Assembly: GCA_021204085.1 (NCBI GenBank)
Contig: JAJPZY010000135.1
Span: forward strand, 4,851 to 68,850
Reading direction: 5' to 3'
DNA from: Clostridiales bacterium
Lineage (GTDB): Bacteria; Bacillota; Clostridia; Lachnospirales; Lachnospiraceae
Length of the DNA: 64,000 nucleotides
Shown here in pieces: positions 15,101 to 30,618 of the stretch (the stretch's first letter is position 1; each line of letters begins with the position of its first letter). The notes under the pieces were generated by a model. That model did not search any database and was not told where the DNA came from. It saw only the letters and a program-made list of their open reading frames with translations. The position numbers and the translations under genes are program-made.

Positions 15101-15300
15101 CTCAGTACACGGCGGAGGAGCTGACAAAGAAAGCGCACAACTTTGAGTTGGAAAAGTCCGGACATACTATTTTCTGCATCGACTATCGTCAGAGCGGAAT
15201 CGGCTCCGGAAGCTGCGGCCCTCAGCTGGCAGATAAATATCGGCTGAACGACACGCATTACAGCTTCGGGTTCCATATCCGCCCGGAGGAGCTTGCGTAG
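12151..15300 (+). CDS. lacZ: GH2 beta-galactosidase (LacZ/EbgA type)
   Basis: GTNRHD, WSMGNESG (acid/base Glu), CEYIHAMGN (nucleophile Glu) and GGFVWEWCD; 1049 aa. Confidence 0.9.
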   Translation: MIIPKYYEDIHTLNVNSEPIRAYYIPTSPAQEQTWKSRRQTDRFFLLNGDWKFLYFDSIYDCLEVFYEEGYRTDEFDSIPVPSNWQDHAYGLHQYTNTRYPFPFDPPYVPHENPCGAYVRNFTYHKAEGTATYHLNFEGVDSCYYVWVNGEFIGYHQVSHSTGEFDITEQLREGENTLAVLVLQWCDGSYLEDQDKFRSSGIFRDVYILARPKNYVSDYFTTTVLKDDYKNADVKIALTFAGEEIPVSYRLMTPCGCTVAEGTSAGAEISFSVSDVTLWNAEAPYLYTLFLATEDEVIRDRIGFREIKIVDSVVYLNGKKVRFRGTNRHDSDPYVGSAVTLESIRYDMSLMKQHNFNAIRSSHYPNMPEFYELCDEYGFYVIDETDLEVHGVVDLYNVNIYREKGEHPFPPFICDNPEWKEAILDRVQKCVLRDKNRPSVLVWSMGNESGYGCTFENALAWTKSYDKTRLTHYEGSLHRPRNPIGGKNDYSNIDLRSRMYASIPEMHAYLQNNPDKPFVQCEYIHAMGNGPGDIEDYYELEEMYDSYVGGFVWEWCDHGIYMGKTNSRHKKFYYGGDFGEYPHDGNFCMDGLVYPDRTLSVGIKEYKNVHRPVRVKLIDAAAGTYILQNNLDFTNLKDALYLTWAVWCDGDKISAGEIRDTGLLDVAPRSKKEVVLPIEVPQMEGKSYVMITSHKLTADCFREEGFELGFDQLFLNDAPTKKLTNLLATESTAQKAVTYSQDERYVYIEGEDFSYTFNLLTGVIGRIVYKNHSFMDEPMELNIWRAPTDNDRVVKKLWYEAGYDCMQTRTYSNTFETLADGSLKITTVSAMAPVYRQKFLDFVIDWVIKPDGTINVHLEVERDAVMRGTYAPYFNMPEKRLDMHGIEDCFEVHEAYLPRLGIRMHLPKNMCKVEYYGYGPYESYIDKRRASWFGKFDAHVAAMHEDYIRPQENGSHYGCEYVTVADRTHRLSVYNETPFSFNLSQYTAEELTKKAHNFELEKSGHTIFCIDYRQSGIGSGSCGPQLADKYRLNDTHYSFGFHIRPEELA

Positions 15301-15305
15301 GAAGC

Positions 15306-15517
15306 TTTTTTGTATCATAGGAAAGACCTTGCTTTTGTAAATTGGTAAAGTGCGTGATTTCCTATGATATAAAAACACTCTGTGAGGATGCGCAGCAGCT
15401 GTGCACGCTTGTTCACTAAGCTCACGATGTTCGCTAAGTGAGCCAATGCGTCGCGGATAGGAAGTTTTTGCTGCGCAACCGCTCGCGCGCGAAGTGTCGC
15501 AGGGCGACACTTTATTT
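15306..15517 (+). repeat. Palindromic intergenic repeat family A, copy 1
   Basis: Core 15371-15512 is 141/142 identical to the reverse complement of the 36.3-36.5 kb copy. Hairpins: tatcataggaaa/tttcctatgata and aagtgtcgc-agg-gcgacactt. Confidence 0.93.
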
Positions 15518-15604
15518 AAAAACATTGAATGACGGATGAGGAAGCTGTCGGTATCATATTTTAAGGCAACCGGGGCAACGCTTCGACGAACTAATCGCTA
15601 ACTG

Positions 15605-15668
15605 CGACTACGGAACTGTCACGATTTTTCTGTGTAGACAGACATGGTATTGGCGTGACAGTTCCTAT
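15605..15668 (+). repeat. Variant REP-like hairpin unit related to family B
   Basis: gactac-GGAACTGTCACG...CGTGACAGTTCC-ta, a 12-bp stem (15612-15623/15654-15665) in the same gactacGGAA...TTCCta frame as family B. Confidence 0.6.
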
Positions 15669-15804
15669 AGACACTCAGAATAGTTTTCGCGTCTAAAGTC
15701 TTAGTATACGACTTTGCTAAGCTCAATGTTCGCCGATGGCTCCATTTCGCTAAGTGCCGCATGTATAACATGAAAGCAGCCAATCAGCGTTCGTCAGTGA
15801 CAGC

Positions 15805-15912
15805 TTTGCATAAGTTCGACTACGGAAATCAGAGATTTCCTACGTTGTATAAGTTCGATCACGCAAATTTGAAATTTGCTATCTCACTTATGTCTCACTT
15901 ATCCGTTTCTTG
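15805..15912 (+). repeat. REP-like repeat family B, copy 1
   Basis: 15815-15905 is identical over 91 bp to the reverse complement of 18550-18640. It holds two tandem units, each TAAGTTCGAYYACG plus a hairpin. Confidence 0.93.
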
Positions 15913-16090
15913 GGCTTTCATGGTAACCGCTGGATTTTGTCTCAGCTAAAAGCGCCCCTATAAAGTTGCCTGAAAATAGGATACCGGCAACTTCCCATCC
16001 TGTGCCGATGGTTATGATAAACAATAAGAATAGTGCTTTGTTAAATCAATGGTTTCTTTTGTTTGAAAAAATACGTTTGGAAAATTTAAG

Positions 16091-16120
16091 TTGACAGGTT
16101 ACGTGAATACACATTATACT
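16091..16120 (+). promoter_or_regulatory. sigmaA-type promoter upstream of the hydF/nif-like/hyp cluster
   Basis: TTGACA-18 bp-TATACT. Confidence 0.7.
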
Positions 16121-16223
16121 TTGAGTAGTTAAGACATTTGCGAGAATCATTCATCTGACCATAAGGTACGGCCTGAAAGGAAAGACAAGTGATTGCAGCG
16201 ACAGGAAAGAGTTATTTATGCTG

Positions 16224-16257
16224 CCCTTGTACCCATTTTCAGGTACAAGGGTTTTTT
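16224..16257 (+). terminator. Intrinsic terminator inside the 5' leader of the hydF cluster (probable attenuator)
   Basis: cccttgtacc-cattttca-ggtacaaggg followed by TTTTTT, about 100 nt after the promoter and 300 nt before hydF. Confidence 0.8.
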
Positions 16258-16562
16258 GTAGTATATATACTTTGAATGTGGGTGGTGTGAGTGAGGAATA
16301 CAAACATGGAGACATTAAAAAGGCAGGGGATAGAATTGTTAATGTTGAGAATAATTTCTGGTTAATCGTCAGATTTTTATAAGCCGAGATTAACTAATGG
16401 ATGAACAACGAAAAAGGCAAAATGTGCCTCCCTGATCCTTGGGGATGACCTGAAAAATAAAGAAAAGTTTCCCAAAACGGGTTGCCGAAGGCAGGAACGA
16501 CCCGAGAAATGAAGAAAATTCGAAGAGAAGTAGTACAGCGCGGATAAAAGGAGGAATGAAAG

Positions 16563-17762
16563 ATGAGCCTGAACAGTACGCCTTCCGCGAACCGGATCCA
16601 CATCGGTTTTTTCGGAAGAAGAAATGCAGGAAAATCAAGTATCGTTAATGCAGTGACCGGGCAGGATCTGGCTGTGGTATCCGAGATCAGAGGGACGACC
16701 ACGGATCCGGTTTACAAGTCGATGGAACTCCTGCCCATGGGACCGGTGGTGATCATTGATACCCCGGGTTTTGACGATGAGGGAAGCCTCGGTGATCTAC
16801 GTGTAAAAAAGACCCGCCAGGTTTTAAATAAGACGGATGTAGCGGTGCTGATTGTTGACGCCTCGGAGGGAAAGCAGCCCTGCGATGAGGAATTGATCGC
16901 TTTGTTTCAGGAGAAGGAGATTCCCTATGTTGTGGCTTATAACAAGTCAGACCTTGTCACAGAGCAGCGAGAACTTTCTGAAAATGAGATCTCCGTTAGC
17001 GCGCTTTATAAGCAGGGAATTTATGAACTGAAGGAAATGATCGGGCGCTCTGTGGTGATGGAGGATGAACGGCTGAAAATTGTCGGAGATCTGATTCAGC
17101 CGGACGATTTTGTGGTACTGGTGGTGCCGATTGACTCGGCGGCTCCGAAAGGGCGGCTGATTCTTCCGCAGCAGCAGACCATCCGGGACGTCTTGGAGGC
17201 GGACGCCACGGCTCTTGTTGTGAAAGAGAACGGTCTGGCTGAGACTCTGAAAAACATGGGACAAAAGCCGGCGATGGTGATCACGGACAGTCAGGCTTTT
17301 GAGCAGGTGGCGACTACGGTGCCGGAGGATATTCTTCTGACCTCTTTCTCTATTCTGATGGCGAGATATAAAGGCTTTCTGGATGCGGCGGTAGAAGGCG
17401 TCCGGGCGCTGGACACACTGGAGGATGGCGATACGGTGCTGATTTCCGAGGGATGCACGCATCACAGGCAGTGCGACGATATCGGTACGGTGAAGCTTCC
17501 ACGTTGGATCAGGCAGTATACGGGCAAAGATATTCGCTTTGCGACGAGCTCCGGTACGGGGTTTCCGGATGATTTGTCCGGATATAAGATGGTGATTCAT
17601 TGCGGCGGGTGCATGCTCAATGAGCGGGAAGTAAAATACCGCATGAAATGTTCTCTGGATCAGGGCGTGCCGTTTACCAATTACGGGGTGACGATCGCGT
17701 ATCTGAAGGGAATATTGAAGCGGAGCGTGCAGGTGTTTCCTTATTTATATGAGAGATTATGA
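16563..17762 (+). CDS. hydF: [FeFe]-hydrogenase H-cluster maturation GTPase HydF
   Basis: [13 protein letters not shown] and NKSD GTPase motifs; GRLILPQ; Fe-S motif EGCTHH...HCGGCM; TNYG. Confidence 0.93.
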
Positions 17763-18505
17763 AGAAAATAGCAGTTTACGGAAAAGGCGGAATCGGAAAA
17801 TCTACGATTGTATCGAATATGGCGGCTGCACTGGCGCAGCAGGGATATCGTGTCATGCAGATCGGCTGTGACCCGAAAGCAGATTCTACAATTGCCCTGC
17901 GTCACGGGACGCCGCTTCCCACAGTGTTGGATACGTTTCGTCAGAAAAAAGATACTTTTACGTCGGAGGATATTGTAAGAATCGGATTTGCAGGCGTTGT
18001 CTGTATCGAAGCAGGCGGACCGGTACCCGGTGTTGGCTGCGCGGGACGGGGAATTATCACGGCGCTGGAGAAGGTTGAAGCGAAGGGAATTTATGATATT
18101 TATCAGCCGGATATCGTTTTCTACGATGTTCTGGGTGATGTGGTCTGCGGCGGATTTTCCATGCCGATGCGCAGCGGTTATGCGGACGAAGTCTATATCG
18201 TTTCCTCCGGTGAGAATATGTCCATTTATGCTGCGGCAAATATTGCGGCGGCGATCCGGAATTTTAAGGGGCGCGGCTATGCGAAGCTCGGCGGCGTGAT
18301 CTTAAACCGACGGAATGTAAAGCGGGAGAAGGAAAAGGTCGAGGAGCTTTGCCGGGATTTTGAGACCGGGATTGTCGGTGACATTGCGTTCTCGGAGCTG
18401 GTACAGGAGGCAGAGGAGCGGAAAGTAACTTTGCTGGAAGCATATCCGGAGAGTGACATCTCACTACAATTTCAACGTCTGGCCAGAACAATTGCGGATG
18501 CGTGA
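17759..18505 (+). CDS. Nitrogenase iron protein (NifH/BchL/CfbC family)-like ATPase 1
   Basis: [19 protein letters not shown], and cluster Cys in GCAGRG and DVVCGGF. At 248 aa it is shorter than canonical NifH. ATGA overlap with hydF. Confidence 0.92.
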
Positions 18506-18541
18506 AGGGAGCAAGCCTATATTTTTACTTATTTTGAGAAT

Positions 18542-18650
18542 CCAAGCAGCGGATAAGTGAGACATAAGTGAGATAGCAAATTTCAAATTTGCGTGATCGA
18601 ACTTATACAACGTAGGAAATCTCTGATTTCCGTAGTCGAATTTATGTAAA
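18542..18650 (-). repeat. REP-like repeat family B, copy 2 (inverted relative to copy 1)
   Basis: 91-bp identity to the reverse complement of 15815-15905. Confidence 0.93.
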
Positions 18651-18850
18651 ACTTCCACAGGTGAACGTCGAGCTTAGCAGAGTTGTTTCGTGTTTATATC
18701 GTTTGATATGAGAATGAAAACCCGAATCTGCGGTTTGGAAAAATCGGTGAACATGTATGGATATGAAATGTCTGAATGAAAGGATATGTCAGACTGACAT
18801 GTGAAGTAAATAAAGTAAAATATGGAAGTGTATAATAAGGCAGATATTGA

Positions 18851-20188
18851 ATGTTGCAGCGTTTAGAACATGATCAAAAGATAAATAATTTGAATACTGA
18901 AAATGTCTGTGTCCCGATTTCCGACGCGCACTTTCCTGCGCCGTTTCACGCGGGGCTGGAATACAGTTCTCCGGCGCGCGGCACCTGGAATATCGTCCAC
19001 ACGGGGATAATGATTCCGGAGTCGCACCAGATCTTTGTCTGTGCGCTGGGCTGCCTGCGGGGCGTGGTTCTGACAGCGGCGGAGATGAACGCGCTGGGCC
19101 GTTATTCTTCGATTCAGATTCGGGAGGAGAATGTTCTGGACGGCGGGATGGAAGATCTGATGATTGAGGGCGTCACGGACATCATTCAAAAGCTGGATGT
19201 CCGGCCGAAAGCGATTTTGCTTTTTATCAGCTGTCAGCATTTTTTCCTGGCGTATGATCAGAAAATTGTCTTTTCCGTCCTCCGCGAGCGCTTTCCGGAT
19301 ATTTATTTTACTGACTGTTACATGATTCCGACGCTTCGCAAGAGCGGCCTGACACCGGATCAGAAGATGCGGATTCAGATGTACAGCATGTTGGAACAAC
19401 GCCCGAAAAACAGAAAAAAGGTGAATCTGATCGGCAGCAATCTGGAGACGGCACATACTTCAGAACTGCGGCGGATGGTGGAAAACGCCGGGTATGAATT
19501 CTGGGATTTATACCGATGTCAGGACTTTAAGGACTACTTATCTATGGCAGAGGCGTCCTTAAACCTTGTCTATGAGCCGATCGCGTTGATGGCGGCGGAG
19601 GATTTGAAAAAGCGGCTGGGGCAGGAGTATCTTTATCTCACTTTCACCTATGATTTTGAAGAATTAGAGGAAAATTATCGGAAGCTGGCGGATGCGCTCG
19701 GGATTGAGAAGCCTGATTTTTCAACAGAGAAACACCGGGCGGAATTTGCGATTGCTCATGCAAAAGAGCTGATTGGGGACATGCCCATCGCGGTTGATTA
19801 TACGTTTACTTTCCGTATCTTAAGTTTTGCAAGGATGCTTTTAGAACAGGGCTTTCATATAACTGAGATTTACGCGGATTCGTTTTTGCCGGAGGATGAA
19901 GAAAATTTCAGGTGGATACAGGAGCAGTATCCTGATGTTCTGATCTCGGCTACGAATCAGCCGGTGATGCGGTTCGTGCATGGGGAGCATAGAATCCTCG
20001 CGATCGGCCAGAAAGCGGCATATTTTTCAGGAACGGATCATTTTGTAAATGTGGCGGAGAGCGGCGGCTTTTACGGATACGACGGGATTGTTCAGATTAT
20101 GAATCTGATGGAGGATGCGTTTTTCCGTAAAAAAGACAGAAAAACCATCATCCAGCGGAAAGGGTACGGGTGCGAGAGCTGCTTATGA
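18851..20188 (+). CDS. Nitrogenase component-1-like oxidoreductase, alpha-type subunit of pair 1
   Basis: Follows the nifH-like gene; VCALGC and FISC Cys sites; C-terminal GFYGYDG similar to NifD/NifE; terminal CESC. Confidence 0.8.
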   Translation: MLQRLEHDQKINNLNTENVCVPISDAHFPAPFHAGLEYSSPARGTWNIVHTGIMIPESHQIFVCALGCLRGVVLTAAEMNALGRYSSIQIREENVLDGGMEDLMIEGVTDIIQKLDVRPKAILLFISCQHFFLAYDQKIVFSVLRERFPDIYFTDCYMIPTLRKSGLTPDQKMRIQMYSMLEQRPKNRKKVNLIGSNLETAHTSELRRMVENAGYEFWDLYRCQDFKDYLSMAEASLNLVYEPIALMAAEDLKKRLGQEYLYLTFTYDFEELEENYRKLADALGIEKPDFSTEKHRAEFAIAHAKELIGDMPIAVDYTFTFRILSFARMLLEQGFHITEIYADSFLPEDEENFRWIQEQYPDVLISATNQPVMRFVHGEHRILAIGQKAAYFSGTDHFVNVAESGGFYGYDGIVQIMNLMEDAFFRKKDRKTIIQRKGYGCESCL

Positions 20189-21633
20189 GACAGGTGACGG
20201 GACTGACTTCTACATATTCATCGGATGAATTCGGCATCTGTTCCGCACTTTATGAGCTGGGCGGAATGGTCGTCATGCATGACGCTTCCGGATGTAATTC
20301 GACCTACACGACGCATGACGAACCGCGGTGGTATGACATGGACAGCATGATTTTCATTTCCGCAATCTCAGAGATGGAAGCCATCATGGGCGACGATGAC
20401 AAGTTTATCGAAGATCTGGTGGAGACGGCCGAAGAGCTGCAGCCGAAGTTTATCGCTCTTGTAGGGGCGCCGATTCCCTATATGATCGGTACGGATTTGG
20501 AGGCGATCGCGGCGATTGTCAGCGAGCGGGTGCAGATTCCCTGCTTTGCGTTTGCGGCGAATGGGATGCACGATTATACGCGCGGCGTGTCCATGGCGCT
20601 GGAGCGGATTGTAAGGGAATACGCTACTGAAGCTGTTTATTCAGGAAGACAGAAAGGTTCATTGGAGACAGAGAACCATGCCGGAAAGCTTGACAGAACG
20701 GAAACAAACATATATCCGGGAAAGAGTGAAACGGGAACGCCGGTATTCCGGGATGAACAGCAGCGGGTGCAGAGTTCTCCTGCATCGAACCGAGAGGATG
20801 TCCGGAAACAGTGTATGGCAGCTCCGATAACCGTCAACATCCTTGGCGCGACGCCCCTGGATTTTTCTTTAAACGGCAGTGTCGATTCCATACAAAAGTG
20901 GATTTCCAACCAGAAAATGCGAATGGGCTCCTGCCTTTCCATAGGATGTACGCTGGATAATATTCGGGAAATGGGAAATGCCGATGTCAATCTTGTGATC
21001 TCAGCCGGAGGTCTTGCAGCTGCAGAAATTTTGCGGGAGCGCTTCGGAACGCCTTATGTAGTGGGAGTTCCGTTTGGCGAGAAATTTTCGGAATATCTGG
21101 CGGAGATTGTACGGGAAGCGGCGAGTTCACAGAAAAACCGTATTTCCTATATGTTAAAAATATCGTGTAAAAACAGAGCAATGTCGCAATCCGATAAAAA
21201 AGCAGAAATATATTCTTGTGATGTCGGTGGAAATAAAACGCAGTTAAAACCTGCAGATGCAATCGGGAACAGCAATGTGTCTTCGAATTCTGATGTGGCA
21301 GGGGAGAGCGGGAAACGCATGCGTTGCGTTATCATCGGCGAGAGTGTATTTTCCGCATCTTTGGCCGCCGCGATTGAGATGGAGCGCAGGGTAAATGTGA
21401 AAGTACTTTGCCCACTGGAAAATGGAGCTGATTTGCTTCGTCCGGGTGATCTTGCCACGCCGGAGGAAGATGATCTGATTCGGGAGATAAAATCAGCAGA
21501 CGCGGTCATTGCGGATCCTCTGTATCAATCACTGGCTCGAGCGAAGCAGTTTTATCCGCTGCCTCATGAGGCATTTTCCGGGAGAATCTATGACAGTGTG
21601 AATCCGAATCTCATTGCGGTTCCGCTAAAGTGA
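20185..21633 (+). CDS. Nitrogenase component-1-like oxidoreductase, beta-type subunit of pair 1
   Basis: SDEFG, HDASGC, DEPRW, VNILGATPLD and IADPLY; ATGA overlap with the upstream gene; paralog of 23859-25016. Confidence 0.8.
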   Translation: MRQVTGLTSTYSSDEFGICSALYELGGMVVMHDASGCNSTYTTHDEPRWYDMDSMIFISAISEMEAIMGDDDKFIEDLVETAEELQPKFIALVGAPIPYMIGTDLEAIAAIVSERVQIPCFAFAANGMHDYTRGVSMALERIVREYATEAVYSGRQKGSLETENHAGKLDRTETNIYPGKSETGTPVFRDEQQRVQSSPASNREDVRKQCMAAPITVNILGATPLDFSLNGSVDSIQKWISNQKMRMGSCLSIGCTLDNIREMGNADVNLVISAGGLAAAEILRERFGTPYVVGVPFGEKFSEYLAEIVREAASSQKNRISYMLKISCKNRAMSQSDKKAEIYSCDVGGNKTQLKPADAIGNSNVSSNSDVAGESGKRMRCVIIGESVFSASLAAAIEMERRVNVKVLCPLENGADLLRPGDLATPEEDDLIREIKSADAVIADPLYQSLARAKQFYPLPHEAFSGRIYDSVNPNLIAVPLK

Positions 21634-21788
21634 GGGGCGTCATATTTAGTGATTTGAGATAAAGCCTTGCTGGGATGGGAAATAACCCACCAAAACAGAA
21701 GAATTGTGAAAATAGTGGGCAGCCGGGACAAAAAGCACCCCACCTAACCAGCAGAATTGTAATGTAGAGGGAAAGGAAATATAAATTT

Positions 21789-22547
21789 ATGTTAAAGCTT
21801 GCAATATATGGAAAAGGCGGGATCGGAAAGTCTACGACTACCGCGAATCTGGCAGCGGCCTTTGCCCTGCTTGGGAAAAAGGTCATTCAGATCGGCTGTG
21901 ATCCGAAAGCGGATTCGACCATCAATCTGCTGGGCGGGCATCCGATGCTGCCGGTGATGAATTATATCCGTGATCACGATGAGGAGCCGGAGCAGCTGGC
22001 GGAGATCGCGAAAGAGGGTTACGGCGGAGTCCTTTGCATTGAGACCGGAGGTCCGACACCGGGGTTGGGCTGTGCCGGCCGCGGCATTATTACGACATTC
22101 AGCCTGCTTGAAGATCTGGAACTTTTTGAGACCTATCAGCCGGATGTGGTTCTCTATGATGTGCTGGGAGATGTGGTCTGCGGAGGATTTGCCGCTCCGA
22201 TTCGCGAGGGTTACGCGGAGCATATACTGATCGTGACGTCCGGGGAAAAAATGGCGCTCTATGCAGCCAATAATATTCAGACGGCAGTTAAAAATTTTGA
22301 GGACAGAGGGTATGCCTCGGTAAAAGGGATTATTCTGAACCGGAGAAATGTGGAAAACGAATATGAAAAGGTATCCGCTTTTGCCGTAGAACATGGGTTG
22401 GACATCATTGCGGATATTCCCAGGAGCGCAGATATCATTCGCTATGAGGACATGGGAATGACGGTAATTGAGGGCGACCCGGATCTTCCAATCAGCCGGA
22501 TTTATCTGGAACTGGCGAAAAAACTGCTTTCGGAAGACCTTATATAA
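21789..22547 (+). CDS. Nitrogenase iron protein (NifH family)-like ATPase 2
   Basis: [25 protein letters not shown] and DVVCGGF; 252 aa. Confidence 0.92.
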
Positions 22548-22566
22548 ATATAAAAGGAATAAAAAC

Positions 22567-23850
22567 ATGCAGCAGAATGCGTACTATATTACAGCGGCAG
22601 AGTTGGCCGCAAAAGGAAAAGAAAATATTCCGGATGAACTGCAGTCTTCAAAACACCTGATCTACAGTTCGCCGGCTACACTGGCATTTCATTCGCCCGG
22701 AGCGCAGGGATTCGGTGTGAAACGAGCGGGTCTGGCTATCCCCGGTTCCGTGATGCTTCTGGTCTCCCCGGCCTGCTGCGGGAGAAATACGATGATGCTG
22801 GATCAGATTGGCGGATACGGGGATCGTTTTTTCTATCTGCTTCAGGATGACACGGATATCGTGACCGGACGCCATCTGAACCGGATTTCAAAGGCGGTGA
22901 AAGAAGTTGCGGATTCTCTGGATGAGAAACCCACAGCGGTGATGATCTGTATCACCTGCGTGGATGCGCTGCTGGGCACGGATATGGAGCGGGTCTGCCG
23001 GAAAGCGTCGGAGTACGCGGGCGTTCCGGTTTTGCCCTGTTATATGTATGCGCTGACCCGGGAGGGGCGTGTGCCGCCGATGACATCTGTGAGAAAGACG
23101 GTATATGCGCTTCTTGAAAAACGGGAGAGGAAAAAAACAGCGGTAAATCTTCTGGGCGAATTTGCTCCCTATGACGACGGCTGTGAGATTTATGAGATTT
23201 TAAATAATCTGGGGTTAAAGACGATTCGTGAAATTTCCCGGTGCCGGGACTTTGAAGAATACCTTTCCATGTCGGAGGCGAATTTTAATATTATTCTGAA
23301 CCCGGAGAGCCGCCTGGCTGCAGAGGATTTCCACAAGCGGTTGGGAATCCCCTCGCTTGAAATGACGCGGGTGTACCAGATTGACAAGATTCAAAAACAG
23401 TATGAACTTCTTGGAACCGCCCTCGGTGTAAAAATCGATGACTCCGCATACTATGAGGAAGCTATGCGGACGGTGGAAGAGTTTTCACAGGCTCATCCGC
23501 AGACTGTATTTGCCGTGGGAGAGTGGATGAACGGAGACCCCTTTGAACTGTCTCTGGCATTGCTACGATACGGACATCAGGTTGCGGAGATATACGGCAC
23601 AGTGACGAACCTGAACTTTATCTACATAAAAAAAATTGCTGCGCTCAGCCCGGAAACCAGAATATATACGAATCTCTCGCCGACTATGATGAACTACAAC
23701 TGCGGGGAAGGCGCGCCTGATATTACCATCGGGCAGGATGCCGCCTACTATCATCCCGATTGCCCGAACGTGCCCTGGAATGCGGAGAATAAACCGTTTG
23801 GATACGCGGGTCTACGGAATTTGGTTCATAGTATTTGTAGTATAATATAG
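22567..23850 (+). CDS. Nitrogenase component-1-like oxidoreductase, alpha-type subunit of pair 2
   Basis: SPACCGR, CITCVDALLGTD, VNLLG and PFGYAG; start moved to the ATG after the AAGGA RBS. Confidence 0.8.
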   Translation: MQQNAYYITAAELAAKGKENIPDELQSSKHLIYSSPATLAFHSPGAQGFGVKRAGLAIPGSVMLLVSPACCGRNTMMLDQIGGYGDRFFYLLQDDTDIVTGRHLNRISKAVKEVADSLDEKPTAVMICITCVDALLGTDMERVCRKASEYAGVPVLPCYMYALTREGRVPPMTSVRKTVYALLEKRERKKTAVNLLGEFAPYDDGCEIYEILNNLGLKTIREISRCRDFEEYLSMSEANFNIILNPESRLAAEDFHKRLGIPSLEMTRVYQIDKIQKQYELLGTALGVKIDDSAYYEEAMRTVEEFSQAHPQTVFAVGEWMNGDPFELSLALLRYGHQVAEIYGTVTNLNFIYIKKIAALSPETRIYTNLSPTMMNYNCGEGAPDITIGQDAAYYHPDCPNVPWNAENKPFGYAGLRNLVHSICSII

Positions 23851-23858
23851 GAGAAATT

Positions 23859-25016
23859 ATGAAAGGCCTTTTAAAATATCTGTCCCCCTTTGCCCCGGAT
23901 CAGTCGGGCGCAGTTTCCGTTTTATATGATCTGGGCGGCATGATCGTCATCTGCGACGCCGGCGGCTGCACCGGTAATTTCTGCGGATTTGACGAGCCGC
24001 GGTGGTTTGAAAAAAAGAGCGCGATTTTTTCCGCGGGCCTGCGGGATATGGACGCCATTCTGGGAAGGGATGACCGTCTGGTAGAAAAGCTGAAGGACGC
24101 GGCTGATCATCTGGATGCGAAATTTATTGCGCTTATCGGCACGCCGGTTCCGGCTGTAATTGCGACGGATTTTAAAGCATTGAAGCGAATGACAGAGAAG
24201 AAAACCGGATTGCCGGTGATTGTCAGCGAGTGCACCGGAACCCGCCTCTATGACAAAGGTGCGGAGGATGCGTACCTGTCACTTTTTCAGACTTTTGCAA
24301 AGCGGGATGTCAGAAAAAATGAACAGACTGTCGGTGTCATTGGAGTGAATCCGCTGGACACCAGTTATTCGGATGCAGCGCAGATTTTGGAGAGCGTGTT
24401 TCTGGACGAAGGATATGAGAATATCCTCTGTTACGGCGCAGAACATAAGCTTGAAAGCAGTGAAACGAATTTCAGCATGAAGAAGTCGGGAAATTGTATG
24501 CAGTTCAGCGATTCTTCGCCTGACGGGAAGAAACCTGCGGATAGCCTTGCAGTGATCGAACAGGCAGGAACCGCCGCAAAAAACATTGTTCTTGCACCAT
24601 CCGGAATCCGGGCGGCAAAATATCTGCAGGAAACTTTCGGCACTCCCTATGAAACGGCATATCCGCTGTTATCTGTAAAATTAAAAGAACGGCTGCACGG
24701 GCTCGCGGGAAAACGTGTGCTTGTCGTCCATCAACAGGTTGCGGCGAATGAGATTCGAAAAGAAATTGCAGGCGATGATGACCTGAATTTTTCAAAGATT
24801 GTCTGCGGCACATGGTTTATGCAGGTTCCGGAGCAGACCGCACAGCAGGATGTGCATTTTGAAAGGGAAGAAACATTTATTTCATACGTGGAACAAGGAA
24901 ATTTTGATGCGATTGTCGCGGACGGAAGGTTTCGCAGGGCGCTGCGCGGTTACAGGGGTGAGTTTGTGGAGTGCCCGCATTTTGCGGTTTCCGGGACGAT
25001 GGATTGTGAGTTATAG
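23859..25016 (+). CDS. Nitrogenase component-1-like oxidoreductase, beta-type subunit of pair 2
   Basis: PDQSG, CDAGGCTGNFC, DEPRW, GTPVPAVIATD and PHFAVSG. Confidence 0.8.
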   Translation: MKGLLKYLSPFAPDQSGAVSVLYDLGGMIVICDAGGCTGNFCGFDEPRWFEKKSAIFSAGLRDMDAILGRDDRLVEKLKDAADHLDAKFIALIGTPVPAVIATDFKALKRMTEKKTGLPVIVSECTGTRLYDKGAEDAYLSLFQTFAKRDVRKNEQTVGVIGVNPLDTSYSDAAQILESVFLDEGYENILCYGAEHKLESSETNFSMKKSGNCMQFSDSSPDGKKPADSLAVIEQAGTAAKNIVLAPSGIRAAKYLQETFGTPYETAYPLLSVKLKERLHGLAGKRVLVVHQQVAANEIRKEIAGDDDLNFSKIVCGTWFMQVPEQTAQQDVHFEREETFISYVEQGNFDAIVADGRFRRALRGYRGEFVECPHFAVSGTMDCEL

Positions 25017-25019
25017 AAG

Positions 25020-25178
25020 TTTTTTTTATATCATAGGAAAGACCTTGTTGTTGTAAAGTATTAAAGTATGCGATTTCCTATGATATAAAAACACTCCGTG
25101 AGGATGCGCAGCTCGCGGATAGGAGGTTTTGCTGCGCAACCGCTCGCGCGCGAAGTGTCGCAGAGCGACACTTTATTT
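25020..25178 (+). repeat. Palindromic repeat family A, copy 2 (lacks a 54-bp internal module)
   Basis: Same left hairpin, aaaaacactc..gaggatgcgcagc core and aagtgtcgc hairpin as copy 1; lacks the equivalent of 15397-15450. Confidence 0.9.
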
Positions 25179-25212
25179 TATGAGTAAGCCGAGATTGTAT
25201 AGGGACAGCAGT

Positions 25213-27690
25213 ATGAATACAGGAGAGAATCAGAAAAATAATTGCATAACGAAGCATATTCGTGTCTATGGTATCGTTCAGGGCGTTGGTTTTCGCCCGT
25301 TTGTGAGCCGGATTGCGGATCGGATCGGTGTGAGAGGGAGCGTAGCGAACAAAGGCTCCTATGTGGAAATATTTTCTGCCGGCACAGGAGAGCAGCAGGA
25401 GGAATTTTTACAGGCGTTGGAGCGGGAAGCTCCGGAGCGCTCTGCCATTTTAAAGGTGGATGTTTCTGATATTGAGAATCTTGCTTTTGATACCTTTGAT
25501 ATCATAGAGAGTGAGCGGGAAGAGGGAGATATCTTTGTCTCGCCGGATATCGCTACCTGTCCGAAATGCAGGCAGGAACTTTATGATCCGACGAACCGCC
25601 GGTATATGCACCCTTTTATTAATTGTACGGCCTGCGGGCCGCGGCTGACGATCTTGGACGCCATGCCCTATGACCGTGAACGGACCAGTATGAAGGACTT
25701 CCCCATGTGTCTGGAGTGTGAGTTTGAGTACACGCACGCGGAGACCAGGCGCTACGACGCCCAGCCTGTCTGTTGTAATGATTGCGGGCCGCAGGTGTAC
25801 CTGCTGGAACGAACTTCTCAGGCAGAGGAAAAAAATGTATGTTGCGGGAGGGAAGCCATCAGCAAGGCGCGAAAAGCAATCGCGGACGGAAAGATCGTAG
25901 CCATTAAAGGCATCGGCGGCTTTCATCTTTGCTGCGACGCCGCCAATGAATCAGCAGTGCGCCGCCTGCGGGAATTAAAGCATCGCCCCGCAAAGCCGTT
26001 TGCGGTGATGATGAAGGATTTGGAGACCGTATATGCGCAGTGTGAAGTGTCAGAAGTACAGAAGGAGATCCTGGACGGTCACGCGAAGCCGATCATTCTT
26101 TTAAAAAAGAAAGTTGGAAACCATCTGGCGGACGCGGTGGCGCCGGATAATCCGAATGTCGGAGTGATGCTGCCGTACGCCCCGGTACAAATGCTGTTGT
26201 TTGACTACAATGATGGTTTCGAGATGCCCACAGATACCTTTGTTATGACCAGCGGCAATGTGTCAGGCGCGCCGATTTGCCGGACAGATGAGGATGCGCT
26301 GCGGGAAATCAGCGGCTTCTGTGATCTGATTTTATCCCACGACCGAAAAATTCGCCTGCGTGCCGATGATTCGGTGATGAATTTTTATAAAGACGAGCCG
26401 TATATGATCCGGCGCTCCAGAGGATACGCGCCGCTCCCGGTCATGATGGATTTCCCGTGGCGCGGGCAGGTGCTGGCCGTCGGCGGCGAATTGAAGAATA
26501 CATTCTGCATCGCCAAAAATCAGCTGTTTTATTCCTCTCCCTATGTGGGGGATATGGCGGATGTCCGTACCGTTCAGGCGCTGACGGAATCGATTACGCG
26601 GATGGAGGAACTGCTGGAGGCAAAGCCGCAGCTGGCAGTCTGTGACCTGCATCCGAAATATAATACAACGGTTGTTGCCGAGAATACAGGACTCCCGTTG
26701 TTGAAAATCCAGCATCACTACGCGCACATTCTTTCCTGTATGGCGGAAAACAATCTGCCGCCTGATACAAAAGTGATCGGAGTTTCCTTTGACGGTACCG
26801 GCTATGGCACCGACGGAACGATCTGGGGCGGGGAATTTCTTGTGGCGGATTACTTCGGTTTTGAGCGGGCCGGCAGCATTCGGCCGTTTCTCCAGATCGG
26901 CGGCGATTCTTCCGCACGTGAGGGTTGGAGGATTGCGGTTTCTATGGTAAATTCGTTGTATCCGGACCGCGCAGCTGAGGTTGCGGAAGCGCTCGGTTTG
27001 TGCGATGAAAAGACACGGAAGCTCTATCAGCAGATGGCAGCGCGGCGAATCAATGCCGTGGAGTCGACCAGCGCAGGCCGCCTGTTCGATGCAGTCAGTG
27101 CAATCCTCGGCATCCGATTGGAATCCTCTTTTGAGGGAGAAGCGTCAACTACGCTGCAGTTCAGGGCGGAGGAGTATCTTGAGAGGAGAGGAAAGGTAAA
27201 AGAGGACATATGTGTTGCAGACGAATGTGACACGGAGAATTGTACCGGGAAGGAAGAAGTAGTTTTAAAAGAAGAAAAAGAATCTGGAAATGTCAGAAAC
27301 ACCTGCGGACTTCAACTAACAGGAGTAGCAGAAAGCACTTCGGACCGCCGGCTTCTTCTTCCAACTGATGAACTGGTGCGGTTTATCATTAATGAGAGAC
27401 TGGCCGGGCAGGATGCCTGCAAACTGGCGTATATTTTCCATCAGACTCTCGCGGAACAGATTATCGCCGGATGCAGAGTGATTTCGGAGGAGACCGGTAT
27501 TACATTCTGCGCCTTAAGCGGCGGCGTGTTTCAGAACCAGCTTTTGCTGGAACTTTGTGAAAAGGGCTTGACTGAAGCCGGATTTACCGTTTATCGTCAC
27601 CGCATGATACCGCCGAATGACGGCGGGCTGGCACTCGGCCAGGCGGCGGCCGGCATGGCATACCTGAATAATACGCTACAAGAAATATAA
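25213..27690 (+). CDS. hypF: Carbamoyltransferase HypF
   Basis: Acylphosphatase domain GIVQGVGFRPF, two CxxC-x18-CxxC zinc fingers, HHYAH, DGTGYGTDG and PPNDGG. The longer N-terminus in the ORF track comes from repeat A. Confidence 0.96.
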   Translation: MNTGENQKNNCITKHIRVYGIVQGVGFRPFVSRIADRIGVRGSVANKGSYVEIFSAGTGEQQEEFLQALEREAPERSAILKVDVSDIENLAFDTFDIIESEREEGDIFVSPDIATCPKCRQELYDPTNRRYMHPFINCTACGPRLTILDAMPYDRERTSMKDFPMCLECEFEYTHAETRRYDAQPVCCNDCGPQVYLLERTSQAEEKNVCCGREAISKARKAIADGKIVAIKGIGGFHLCCDAANESAVRRLRELKHRPAKPFAVMMKDLETVYAQCEVSEVQKEILDGHAKPIILLKKKVGNHLADAVAPDNPNVGVMLPYAPVQMLLFDYNDGFEMPTDTFVMTSGNVSGAPICRTDEDALREISGFCDLILSHDRKIRLRADDSVMNFYKDEPYMIRRSRGYAPLPVMMDFPWRGQVLAVGGELKNTFCIAKNQLFYSSPYVGDMADVRTVQALTESITRMEELLEAKPQLAVCDLHPKYNTTVVAENTGLPLLKIQHHYAHILSCMAENNLPPDTKVIGVSFDGTGYGTDGTIWGGEFLVADYFGFERAGSIRPFLQIGGDSSAREGWRIAVSMVNSLYPDRAAEVAEALGLCDEKTRKLYQQMAARRINAVESTSAGRLFDAVSAILGIRLESSFEGEASTTLQFRAEEYLERRGKVKEDICVADECDTENCTGKEEVVLKEEKESGNVRNTCGLQLTGVAESTSDRRLLLPTDELVRFIINERLAGQDACKLAYIFHQTLAEQIIAGCRVISEETGITFCALSGGVFQNQLLLELCEKGLTEAGFTVYRHRMIPPNDGGLALGQAAAGMAYLNNTLQEI

Positions 27691-27709
27691 AGCAGAGGAG
27701 GATATATAC

Positions 27710-27916
27710 ATGTGTGTAGGATTATCAGCAAAAGTAGTAGGAATTAAAGACGGCATGGCTTTGGTGGACGCGATGGGTGCGAAGCGTGAGGTTTCCGCAG
27801 AACTTTTGGATGAGCTGGAGCCGGGAGATTATGTCATGGTACATGCGGGTGTCGCGATCGCGAAGATCAATGGCGATGATGATGCCGAGGCAGATGACGT
27901 CATCGGTTTGCTGTAA
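27710..27916 (+). CDS. hypC: HypC/HupF chaperone
   Basis: Cys2 in MCVGLSAKV and GDYVMVHAGVA; 68 aa. Confidence 0.93.
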   Translation: MCVGLSAKVVGIKDGMALVDAMGAKREVSAELLDELEPGDYVMVHAGVAIAKINGDDDAEADDVIGLL

Positions 27917-27931
27917 AGAAGGAGAATTAAA

Positions 27932-28978
27932 ATGGACGACGCAATCAAAAAAGCGCGTGGGATTATTGAAAATTATGACGGGCCGAAGCTTCGGATCATG
28001 GAAGTCTGCGGCACGCATACACATGAAATTTTCCGTCTTGGAATACGGAATATCCTGCCGGATAATATTGAACTGATTTCCGGGCCGGGATGTCCGGTCT
28101 GCGTGACGCCGGTCGGTTATATCGACGAGGCGGTGATGCTGGCTTTGGAAAAAGGCTGCACAGTCTGTACATTCGGAGATCTGATCCGTGTGCCGGGAAC
28201 GAAGATGAGTCTGGCGGGAGCCCGCGCGGAAGGCGCGGATGTTAAGATCGTATATGCGCCGCAGGATGCGGTAACTGTTGCAAAAGAAAATCCGGACAAA
28301 CAGGTGGTGTTTCTGGCAGTAGGTTTTGAGACGACTACGCCGTCCGCCTGTCTTGCCGTAAAAAAAGCAAGGGAGCAGGGACTTGATAATTTTTCAATCC
28401 TGACAGCGAACAAGACCATGCCGAATGCGTATCAGGCGCTGAAAGGAAGTGCGGATGCATTCCTTTATCCGGGGCATGTCAATGCCATTACGGGCGAGGC
28501 AGACTGCCGGAAGCTGAAGGATGAGGGGGTTTCCGGAGTGATTGCCGGATTTACGGCAAAAGAGCTTTTGACGGCGCTGGCAGTTATTATAGAGAAATCA
28601 AAAACAGGAGAGCCGTTTTTTGTAAACTGTTATCCCAGAGTGGTCCGTCCTGAGGGAAATTCTGCCGGGAGGGCAATCATTGAGGAAGTGATGGAGCCCT
28701 GTGATTCTGAATGGCGGGGCTTAGGTGTGATTCCTGATTCGGGGCTTAAACTGCGGGAAGATTATCGTGAATTTGATGCGCGGTTAAAGTATAATCTTCC
28801 GGAAATCCACGGGAAGCCGAACCCGGCCTGCCGCTGCGGGGAGGTGCTTCAGGGGAAATGCCGCCCGGTGGATTGCAGTCTTTTCGGAAAAGTGTGTACG
28901 CCGCAGCATCCGGTGGGCGCATGTATGGTTTCCAATGAGGGAAGCTGCTCCGCATATTTTTCTTACGGAATCGGATGA
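27932..28978 (+). CDS. hypD: Hydrogenase maturation Fe-S scaffold HypD
   Basis: MEVCGTHT, GPGCPVC, GFETT, PGHV and the C-terminal Cys cluster ending GACMVSNEGSC. Confidence 0.96.
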   Translation: MDDAIKKARGIIENYDGPKLRIMEVCGTHTHEIFRLGIRNILPDNIELISGPGCPVCVTPVGYIDEAVMLALEKGCTVCTFGDLIRVPGTKMSLAGARAEGADVKIVYAPQDAVTVAKENPDKQVVFLAVGFETTTPSACLAVKKAREQGLDNFSILTANKTMPNAYQALKGSADAFLYPGHVNAITGEADCRKLKDEGVSGVIAGFTAKELLTALAVIIEKSKTGEPFFVNCYPRVVRPEGNSAGRAIIEEVMEPCDSEWRGLGVIPDSGLKLREDYREFDARLKYNLPEIHGKPNPACRCGEVLQGKCRPVDCSLFGKVCTPQHPVGACMVSNEGSCSAYFSYGIG

Positions 28979-29123
28979 TTGGATTATATTGAAGATACAA
29001 TTAAATGGATGAGTCAGGCCTGTTTTTTCGAAAATATGACTGCAGGTTTATATTTACGGATGGAGGACTTTCTATTGATAGATTTGGTAATCGGCAAATA
29101 GATGAATCGGGAAGGAAGAAAAA

Positions 29124-30134
29124 ATGAGTGATAGTAAAAAAGTAACCCTCGCCCACGGCGCGGGAGGAAAGCAGACGGCGGAATTGATCCGGGAGGTGTT
29201 CGCGGCGCATTTTTCAAATCCGCAATTTACGGCGGATGACGCGGCGGTGCTGGATGTGGGAAGTGGAAAAATTGCCATGTCTACAGACGGATTTATCGTG
29301 TCTCCCTATAAATTTAACGGAGGAAATATCGGAAAACTTTCCATTTGCGGGACAGTAAATGATTTGTCCTGCATGGGGGCGCGGCCGCTGTATCTGACCT
29401 GCTCCTTTATCATAGAGGAAGGATTTCCGCTTGATGAGCTGGAGCAGATCGCGGCATCCATGGAAAAAACAGCAATGGAGGCCGGTGTAAAGATCGTAGC
29501 CGGAGATACAAAAGTAGCCGGAGCCGGACAGGTGGATCATATTTTTATTACAACGACCGGAATCGGCGCATTGACGGAAGGTGTTTCAACCTCCGGAGCT
29601 TATGCGAGACCGGGGGATGCAATCCTTGTGACAGGCGATATCGGCCGGCACGGCTGCACCATTTTGCTTGCAAGAGAAGATCTGGGAATTGAAGCGGATA
29701 TTAAAAGCGATTGTGCCCCGCTCTGGGGAACCGTAGAGTTGATGATTGATGAAACAAAGGATATTCATGTGATTCGCGACGCAACGAGGGGCGGTGTGGG
29801 GACGGTTCTCTACGAAATTGCGGCGGAGAGCAATGTCGGCGTTCGGCTCGATGGCGCGGCAATCCCGGTTGATCCGGCAGTTCGCGGTGTCTGCGGAATG
29901 CTGGGACTTGATCCGCTCTATCTCGCGAATGAAGGAACCCTGGTCGTGATCGCACCCAGACCGGAGGCAGAGCGGTTGCTCACGGTTTTAAAGGATGGAA
30001 AATATTCGGCAAATGCTGCGATCATCGGTGAGATTACCGACAAGCTGCCGGGAAAAGTGGTTATGACTACGGAGATCGGGGCTGAAACTATGCTGCCGCA
30101 GCCGGGCGGGGAACTGTTGCCGAGGATATGTTAA
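29124..30134 (+). CDS. hypE: Carbamoyl dehydratase HypE
   Basis: LAHGAGGK, GTVNDL, DATRGG and the C-terminal PRIC. Confidence 0.96.
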   Translation: MSDSKKVTLAHGAGGKQTAELIREVFAAHFSNPQFTADDAAVLDVGSGKIAMSTDGFIVSPYKFNGGNIGKLSICGTVNDLSCMGARPLYLTCSFIIEEGFPLDELEQIAASMEKTAMEAGVKIVAGDTKVAGAGQVDHIFITTTGIGALTEGVSTSGAYARPGDAILVTGDIGRHGCTILLAREDLGIEADIKSDCAPLWGTVELMIDETKDIHVIRDATRGGVGTVLYEIAAESNVGVRLDGAAIPVDPAVRGVCGMLGLDPLYLANEGTLVVIAPRPEAERLLTVLKDGKYSANAAIIGEITDKLPGKVVMTTEIGAETMLPQPGGELLPRIC

Positions 30135-30258
30135 TTCAGATACAGATGAATCCTGTGGAGGACTGTGAATCGTAACATTCTGAATTTCTGTAAAATTCCC
30201 TATTTTCTTTTCCGTAAAACCTGTATATAATAATGCTCAGACAGGAGGTAGAAATCAT

Positions 30259-30618
30259 ATGAAAGGACAGATACAAAACGCGTTGGGTACAGTCAGCATA
30301 GATTCGCAGGTAGTTGCTTCCTGTGCCGGTTCCGCAGCGGTGGAGTGTTTCGGCATCGTGGGCATGGCAGCAGTAAATATGAAAGACGGACTTGTGAAGC
30401 TGCTGAAAAAAGATTATCTGCATCATGGGATTACGGTGCAGATTGAGGAGGATGACAAGATCACACTGGATTTTCATGTAATTGTCTCCTACGGCGTGAG
30501 CATTGCTGCCGTTTCAGATAACCTGATGAATACGGTGAAGTATAAAGTGGAAGAGTTTACCGGGCTCACAGTCGATAAAATCAACATCTTTGTGGAAGGT
30601 GTCAGAGTAATTGACTAA
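30259..30618 (+). CDS. Asp23/Gls24-family protein (YloU-like)
   Basis: AVECFGIVGMA and VDKINIFVEGVRV; upstream of the DAK2 gene. Confidence 0.88.
   Translation: MKGQIQNALGTVSIDSQVVASCAGSAAVECFGIVGMAAVNMKDGLVKLLKKDYLHHGITVQIEEDDKITLDFHVIVSYGVSIAAVSDNLMNTVKYKVEEFTGLTVDKINIFVEGVRVID

Follow-up and report, generated by a model that had tools for sequence, protein, structure and literature searches.

In the prevailing view, all [FeFe] hydrogenases are matured by HydE, HydF and HydG, and these three proteins suffice. HydE and HydG are radical-SAM enzymes. The product of HydG, a tyrosine lyase, is Fe(CO)2(CN)(Cys), which is also the substrate of HydE, whereas HypCD makes Fe(CN)2(CO). In current practice, the finding of hypCDEF genes is taken to indicate [NiFe] hydrogenases, and the lack of hydG to mean that [FeFe] hydrogenases are inactive. 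Here, we analyzed four adjacent genes, hypF, hypC, hypD and hypE (25213-30134), in a 64,000-nucleotide stretch of DNA from a Clostridiales bacterium of the Lachnospiraceae (contig JAJPZY010000135.1 of assembly GCA_021204085.1, positions 4,851 to 68,850 of the forward strand; hereafter the window, in whose coordinates the genes are given). These genes are the tail of one 11-gene operon that begins with hydF and continues on the same strand with two sets of nitrogenase-like genes, H1-D1-K1 (set 1) and H2-D2-K2 (set 2), ahead of hypF-C-D-E. The comparisons presented below suggest that this operon is probably an undescribed route to CO- and cyanide-bearing iron for iron-only hydrogenases. The reading that we prefer, with a probability of roughly 0.6, is that the operon supplies the Fe-CO-CN building block of the H-cluster in place of HydG, and that this block would then be passed to HydE and HydF.

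Two published observations touch on this system. A single sentence of Dos Santos et al. (2012; PMC3464626) records that, in Coprococcus catus GD/7, NifHEN-like proteins neighbour those of hydrogenase maturation. In the Clostridium ljungdahlii group, where HypCDEF are present, Di Leonardo et al. (2022; PMC9431212) searched in vain for HydG and HypA/HypB, and they offered no explanation connecting the missing HydG with the missing HypA/HypB. Our full-text literature search returned no paper linking nitrogenase-like genes, Hyp proteins and the absence of HydG. HydG is unfindable in some industrial acetogens, as reported, and, in the present analysis, in hundreds of gut and rumen species.

Hyp genes and the search for a [NiFe] partner

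All four hyp genes lie on the forward strand and each is present in a single copy in the genome from which the window comes. The product of hypF (25213-27690), a carbamoyltransferase scoring 751 bits with TIGR00143 (cut-off 466), possesses all five Pfam domains, namely an acylphosphatase domain, two zf-HYPF, a YrdC and a Kae1-like domain, as well as four CxxC motifs. HypC (27710-27916; PF01455), the Fe(CN)2CO chaperone of 68 amino acids, starts with MCVG, and its Cys2 and His45, the latter presumably equivalent to His51 of the E. coli protein, are kept in 67/67 homologues. In HypD (27932-28978), the [4Fe-4S] scaffold (TIGR00075, 404 bits for a cut-off of 193), we observed the motifs CGTHTH at residue 26, GPGCPVC at 51, GFETT at 131 and PGHVNAITG at 180, together with the cysteine-rich C-terminal tail. 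Finally, HypE (29124-30134; TIGR02124, 424 bits for a cut-off of 252), which makes the thiocyanate on its C-terminal cysteine, ends with an intact PRIC. Taken together, these results confirm the preliminary description of the locus, in which the four genes had been presented as intact with their diagnostic motifs, and all of them are above equivalog or gathering cut-offs.

The preliminary description had also reported that hypA and hypB are lacking from the window. This absence extends to the whole genome (2.93 Mb in 151 contigs, 94.7% complete), in which we found no match to PF01155 (HypA), PF00374 (NiFeSe_Hases, the [NiFe] large subunit) or PF00346 (Complex1_49kDa, the group-4 type large subunit), and where TIGR00073 (HypB) gave only matches below the cut-off (best 84 bits against 121). 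The best HypB-like match is not HypB; it corresponds to UreG, inside a ureE-F-G-D row. The genome-wide search for hypA/hypB together with a [NiFe] hydrogenase outside the window was thus negative. It is broadly correct that all six Hyp proteins are required for [NiFe] maturation, with the reservation that high nickel can partly bypass the loss of HypA/HypB. Overall, the acceptor that had been proposed from the window, nickel-independent and distinct from [NiFe] hydrogenases, is supported by these negative searches.

The same searches were extended to 50 other genomes bearing the cluster (carriers). The large subunit was absent by both models in 46 of them, and an Ech-type large subunit was present in the remaining four. 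HypA was detected in 15/50 carriers. For 11 of these 15, no [NiFe] large subunit was found, and none of the 11 corresponding HypA regions contains a cluster gene. In most of the eight HypA regions examined, hypA is followed by a cobW/HypB-sized gene, and a gene of ~950 amino acids stands beside it in five. Protein-family searches on three regions identified HypB in 3/3, a Fer4/Pyr_redox_2 oxidoreductase in 2/3 and a CdhC-like protein in 1/3. As an example, in Dorea ammoniilytica (L088:6065-10958) hypA lies with hypB, the ~950-amino-acid Fer4/Pyr_redox_2 oxidoreductase and the CdhC-like protein, and parts of this layout were found in five further loci (L091, L093, L094, L095 and L097). Since hypA lies away from the cluster in the eight genomes examined, HypA as a part of the cluster system was ruled out.

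These results bear on the most conventional explanation, according to which hypFCDE are ordinary [NiFe] maturation genes whose partners are unassembled or too divergent, or else a decaying relic. The draft state of the genome (151 contigs, ~5% incomplete) would leave room for it, as would the Ech-type large subunits (4/50) and the HypA genes (15/50) of related genomes. We nevertheless consider it very improbable: the absence of the large subunit is repeated in 46 of the 50 genomes and HypA was away from the cluster in the eight examined of the 11 fetched genomes. Decay is ruled out because the motifs are intact, the cluster proteins are 57-92% identical across carrier groups and phyla, and the synteny is fixed. 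A hidden [NiFe] partner was likewise ruled out by searching this genome and the 50 carriers for HypA, HypB and, with two models, the large subunit. The hypFCDE genes of this locus are therefore not a remnant of [NiFe]-hydrogenase maturation.

[FeFe] hydrogenases, HydF and the missing HydG

The first gene of the operon, hydF (16563-17762, forward strand), encodes the maturation GTPase and scaffold of [FeFe] hydrogenases (TIGR03918, 570 bits for a cut-off of 326). It is the only hydF copy of the genome, its P-loop and CxHx44HCxxC motif are intact (cluster motif at residues 298-349), and its stop overlaps the start of H1 by 4 nucleotides. Elsewhere in the genome, we identified HydE (C132:14233-15255; 579 bits for a cut-off of 255), a TM1266-like gene and three [FeFe]-hydrogenase genes (PF02906), two of group-A type and one group-B-like. 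One of the group-A type enzymes (C51:6451-8241, reverse strand) reads TSCSPGW for TSCCPGW in its first H-cluster motif, with Ser in place of the second Cys. No HydG was found above the TIGR03955 cut-off in this genome (best 183 bits against 312). The best candidate, on contig C45, was identified as ThiH since it reaches only 183 bits, covers model positions 38-381 without the C-terminal domain, and lies within thiG-thiH-thiE.

To describe the distribution of the cluster, we scanned one genome per species for D2, which yielded 494 relatives, and fetched 80 loci. Set 2 was directly followed by hypF-C-D-E in every locus with enough flanking sequence, and H1-D1-K1 was located directly upstream or downstream of this block, although no H1 match was seen in a few loci. 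The loci come from Lachnospiraceae, Anaerovoracaceae, Oscillospiraceae, Synergistaceae, Spirochaetaceae, Lentisphaeria and Victivallales, and the cultured carriers include Eubacterium ramulus ATCC 29099, Anaerostipes and Dorea. We then clustered all the flanking open reading frames of the 80 loci, the eleven operon genes being set aside. The commonest neighbour was a TM1266-type "iron-only hydrogenase system regulator" (29 loci), which immediately preceded H1 in the one case inspected, and the other top recurrent neighbours were hydF (at least 17 loci) and hydE (10 loci). [NiFe] genes were not recurrent among these clustered neighbours. The invariant synteny of set 2 with hypFCDE and the overlap between hydF and H1 bear out the link of the hyp genes to HydF and to the nitrogenase-like proteins that the preliminary description had thought plausible.

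HydG was above the cut-off in 0/50 cluster-bearing genomes. In 32 of them the TIGR03955 search returned ThiH-like matches only (166-204 bits), and the detection of such weak matches indicates that the search was sensitive enough. In a sample of 301 genomes of the same family, one per genus, HydG was present in 129, a D2 orthologue in 22 and HydF in 161. Among the 161 HydF-positive genomes, 127 possess HydG only, 22 the D2 orthologue only, none both and 12 neither, an exclusion significant by the Fisher test (p = 8e-19). HydF was present in 22/22 D2-positive genomes, two of which are closed genomes with the full cluster and with hydF elsewhere on the chromosome. Distant D2 matches in three further genomes (G055, G133 and G280) were rejected, as they belong to single H-D-K trios without hyp genes, which are other nitrogenase-like families.

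We also built a HydF tree from 68 sequences of carriers, of carriers of a shorter variant described below and of HydG genomes. The label HydG or nif-like requires 10 changes on this tree, at least five of them forced by well-supported branches, and one clade comprises 29 purely nif-type genomes, including a Spirochaetaceae sequence. Because of these label changes, the exclusion of HydG is considered to be replicated across lineages, and in part also to result from common inheritance or joint transfer. As HydF itself may move along with the cluster, the tree is only a rough stand-in for a species tree. In one locus (L139, G117:C1:173967-175964), a C-terminal fragment of HydG (model positions 317-470) stands beside a truncated hydF (75-392), which looks like a decaying canonical operon.

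The 12 HydF-positive genomes with neither HydG nor D2 revealed a shorter arrangement. We fetched the hydF neighbourhoods of 11 of them, and at least seven of the 12 carry set 1. In six genomes (L132:1225-9965 in G337, L131, L134, L135, L136 and L138), set 1 adjoins hydF and is accompanied by hydE, a TM1266-like gene or both; in the seventh (G265), H1-D1 lies at the end of a contig separate from that of hydF. The gene order, annotated fully in L132 and L134, is TM1266-like, FecCD permease, ABC ATPase, hydE, H1, D1, K1, binding protein and hydF, where the binding protein is a Peripla_BP_2 lipoprotein with a lipobox. Neither set 2 nor hyp genes were found near this operon. With these genomes included, a nif-like set is present in at least 29 HydF-positive genomes and HydG in 127, with both in none and five remaining. 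Set 1 thus looks like a constant core tied to HydE/HydF, while set 2 with hypFCDE looks like one interchangeable module and the importer like another.

The shorter variant also gives some substance to an explanation by salvage, in which the cluster would detoxify or scavenge CO, cyanide or a ready-made iron complex, and HydG-less genomes would take their ligands from the environment. The FecCD-type ABC importer and the lipoprotein binding protein stand there in place of set 2 and hypFCDE, and HydF co-expressed with HydE alone picks up trace diatomics in vitro, with an efficiency of ~1% (PMC9431212). However, HypF and HypE are synthetic enzymes that produce cyanide from carbamoyl phosphate, and their catalytic motifs are all conserved; moreover, no importer gene was present in type I loci or in the cluster of the window genome. 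We therefore regard salvage as an improbable explanation of the cluster.

Overall, the final acceptor is likely the H-cluster of [FeFe] hydrogenases, reached through HydE/HydF, and not a free-standing new enzyme, because the genome combines [FeFe] hydrogenases, HydE and HydF without HydG, and because the cluster and HydG are mutually exclusive.

Nitrogenase-like proteins and the proposed route

The two nifH-like ATPases/reductases, H1 (17759-18505; PF00142, 293 bits) and H2 (21789-22547; PF00142, 295 bits), are 50% identical and carry the P-loop GKGGIGKS. Their cluster cysteines are strictly kept, Cys94 and Cys130 in 60/60 sequences for H1 and Cys95 and Cys131 in 76/76 for H2. Both score 305-322 bits with the NifH model for an equivalog cut-off of 394, and H1 is below the nifH and CfbC equivalog cut-offs. 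The component-1-like proteins, the alpha-type D1 (18851-20188) and D2 (22567-23850, with an open frame from TTG 22468) and the beta-type K1 (20170-21633) and K2 (23859-25016), are all above the PF00148 cut-off. With NifD/NifK-type models they reach only 27-69 bits, for equivalog cut-offs of 486-654, and the closest solved structure is NifE for both D2 (E = 9e-15) and D1 (E = 6e-5). All six genes are on the forward strand, and there are no other nif-like genes in the window genome beyond sets 1 and 2. In their sources, the homologues are named just "nitrogenase component 1", "oxidoreductase" or "NifE".

Conserved cysteines are numerous: C64, C68, C128, C156, C223, C441 and C444 in D1, and the invariant C70, C71, C128, C131 and C144 in D2, with C64/C68/C128 and C70/C71/C128/C131, respectively, at the shared cluster site. 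In the beta-type proteins, C24, C42, H37 and H49 of K1 and C37, C42 and H374 of K2 are conserved. The C-terminal CxxC of D1 (GCESCL, 20167-20188) is kept in 61 to 66 of 71 homologues, and D2 has no such tail. In the alignment of D2 with NifE, C131 falls on what we take to be NifE Cys124, a Val occupies the position that presumably corresponds to NifE Cys250 and NifD Cys275, so that no Cys is present there, and an Asn is found at what should be the position of NifE Asn418 and NifD His442. Because the scores are below the equivalog cut-offs, NifE is the nearest relative and D2 lacks the Cys of the NifD-Cys275 type, the D/K proteins are best assigned to nitrogenase-like proteins closest to the scaffold NifEN, and not to nitrogenase. 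In some lineages (L032:6730-9258, L038:6671-9229 and L053:6662-9256), the D1-like and K1-like genes form a single open frame of ~840-860 amino acids, a natural alpha-beta fusion.

From these elements, the following route can be proposed. Given their intact family membership, HypF and HypE would convert carbamoyl phosphate to a cyanide equivalent, and HypC/HypD would assemble an Fe-CN-CO unit, which is Fe(CN)2(CO) in this family. More speculatively, the two nitrogenase-like systems would act as ATP-driven low-potential reductases with NifEN-like scaffolds, and would adjust or reduce the Fe-CN-CO unit, possibly add CO, and hand it on. HydE and HydF, judging from their presence and linkage, would complete the [2Fe] subcluster and transfer it to the three [FeFe] hydrogenases. 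As the HydG product has two CO for one CN and the HypCD product the reverse, ligand adjustment and reduction would be required, a need that low-potential, ATP-coupled electron delivery could fit, although this is speculative. Addition of CO is suggested because CO outnumbers CN among the ligands required by the H-cluster. Nitrogenase proteins can reduce CO2 to CO. Nickel would not be needed at any step, which would explain the absence of hypA/hypB.

A wider generalization can be drawn from this route, namely that members of the nitrogenase superfamily might act here as ATP-driven organometallic synthases. Together with HypFCDE, they would use carbamoyl phosphate and a one-carbon source, the latter possibly through reduction of CO2 to CO, to make a precursor with one iron (or two) bearing CO and CN, and would provide at least four phyla with a route to the H-cluster independent of tyrosine and HydG, with a sister variant that imports the precursor. 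We put this forward tentatively, as a conjecture that could well prove wrong.

The features of the nitrogenase-like proteins can also be accounted for in another way. The operon might build and house its own new organometallic cofactor, HydE and HydF being co-opted helpers and the loss of HydG a side effect. In such a case, one pair could be a NifEN-like scaffold and the other a catalytic pair with an Fe-CN-CO-containing cluster. Two paralogous H/D/K sets indeed recall NifEN and NifDK, NifE is the best solved relative of D1 and D2, many extra cysteines are conserved, including the C-terminal CxxC of D1, and set 2 is invariably contiguous with hypFCDE. Dos Santos et al. (2012; PMC3464626) also suggested a role in metallocluster assembly. 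However, this explanation leaves unaccounted for the source of the CO and CN ligands of the three [FeFe] hydrogenases in a HydG-less genome, the failure of HydG to co-occur with the cluster (0/22 and 0/50) and the retention of HydF in every D2-positive genome of the family sample, and conserved genes pointing to a candidate substrate are lacking around the cluster. We consider it unlikely, and the division into a scaffold pair and a catalytic pair is equally doubtful. A self-contained new cofactor or enzyme is the main rival to the replacement of HydG, and either reading would represent new biology.

Several points weigh against the replacement of HydG by the operon. The support comes from comparative genomics throughout, a search for RNA runs covering the stretch returned none, many of the compared genomes are metagenome-assembled, and the presence of HydE and [FeFe] hydrogenases was checked genome-wide in the window's own genome only. 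In most loci, hydF does not adjoin the cluster. The shorter variant, with set 1, the ABC importer, hydE and hydF, seemingly has no set 2 or nearby hyp genes, and Hyp may for this reason not be strictly required for the HydG-less state. Five HydF-positive genomes have neither HydG nor a nif-like set near hydF. Finally, the ligand ratio of the HypCD product does not match that of the HydE substrate, and extra chemistry must be assumed.

If the operon does replace HydG, the gap left by the missing HydG would be explained, and the Nif, Hyp and Hyd lineages of metallocofactor assembly would be joined in one pathway, with a new kind of function for the nitrogenase superfamily. A second route to active [FeFe] hydrogenases in heterologous hosts would also become available, and the prediction of hydrogen metabolism from gut metagenomes would be altered.

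Operon layout and comparison with known systems

Upstream of hydF, we observed a promoter-like site (16091-16120, forward strand) composed of TTGACA, a spacer of 18 nucleotides and TATACT, with 11/12 consensus matches. It is followed by a leader (16128-16262, forward strand) that contains a conserved 57-nucleotide hairpin (16144-16200; ATCTGACCATAAGG...CCTGAAGGGGAAGACAAGTGAT) and then an intrinsic terminator (16223-16252 and a T run). The hairpin is single-copy in the window genome, and 13 closely related loci have it conserved ahead of the cluster. A riboswitch was rejected, as no Rfam match was obtained at E <= 1 (15200-30400); the hairpin is real but confined to close relatives. Neither an nhmmer profile nor a covariance model (R1) detected it ahead of 20 canonical TM1266-hydE-hydG-hydF operons, and the searches gave one weak match, in L027 (E = 0.036).

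Within the operon, two spacers are unusually long, each being taken up by one copy of a dispersed intergenic repeat. The H1-D1 spacer repeat (18535-18667) has an inverted copy at 15788-15920, and for this family blastn gives 28 matches across the genome, mostly partial. The K2-hypF spacer repeat (25022-25178), which includes a hairpin, has a second copy at 15306-15517, and its family gives 42 matches, many of them partial; a terminator-like hairpin lies at 25152-25174 inside this spacer repeat. In relatives without the spacer repeat, K2 and hypF abut, as in L004, where hypF begins at 12447, just past the end of K2 at 12445. Downstream of the row ending with hypE, the housekeeping genes asp23, fakA and recG were found.

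In comparison with [NiFe] maturation by HypABCDEF, this locus shares HypF, HypC, HypD and HypE, over cut-offs and with intact motifs. By contrast, the window genome is without HypA, HypB, the large subunit and the nickel step, and the gene adjoining hypF encodes a nitrogenase-like beta-type subunit, where hydrogenase genes would be expected. A preprint on Acetobacterium wieringae reportedly describes a putative nickel-dependent isoprene reductase cluster, with Hyp-family genes outside [NiFe] hydrogenases. We take the hypA-hypB-oxidoreductase groups of some carriers to resemble that cluster, which reportedly uses the nickel arm HypA/HypB, whereas the window cluster has the iron-ligand arm only.

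With NifH/NifEN and the nitrogenase-like systems, the operon has in common the P-loop, the two cluster cysteines, the PF00148 pairs and a NifE-like D2. It differs from DPOR, COR, CfbCD, methylthio-alkane reductase and NifEN by scores far below the equivalog cut-offs and by its sets of conserved cysteines, and no tetrapyrrole, sulfur-salvage or nif genes are present near the window cluster. The association mentioned for Coprococcus catus GD/7 (PMC3464626) is probably the same cluster, for which metallocluster assembly was guessed; that report made no link to the absence of HydG, to HydE/HydF or to [FeFe] hydrogenases, and contained no distribution analysis.

The closest comparison is with the canonical TM1266-like/HydE/HydG/HydF system. 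HydE, HydF and the TM1266-like regulator are present in both and often adjacent, relatives of the same family carry the canonical operon TM1266-hydE-hydG-hydF, and the presumed end product, the H-cluster, is shared. In contrast with the canonical system, HydG is absent in every carrier examined, and ten other genes stand in its place.

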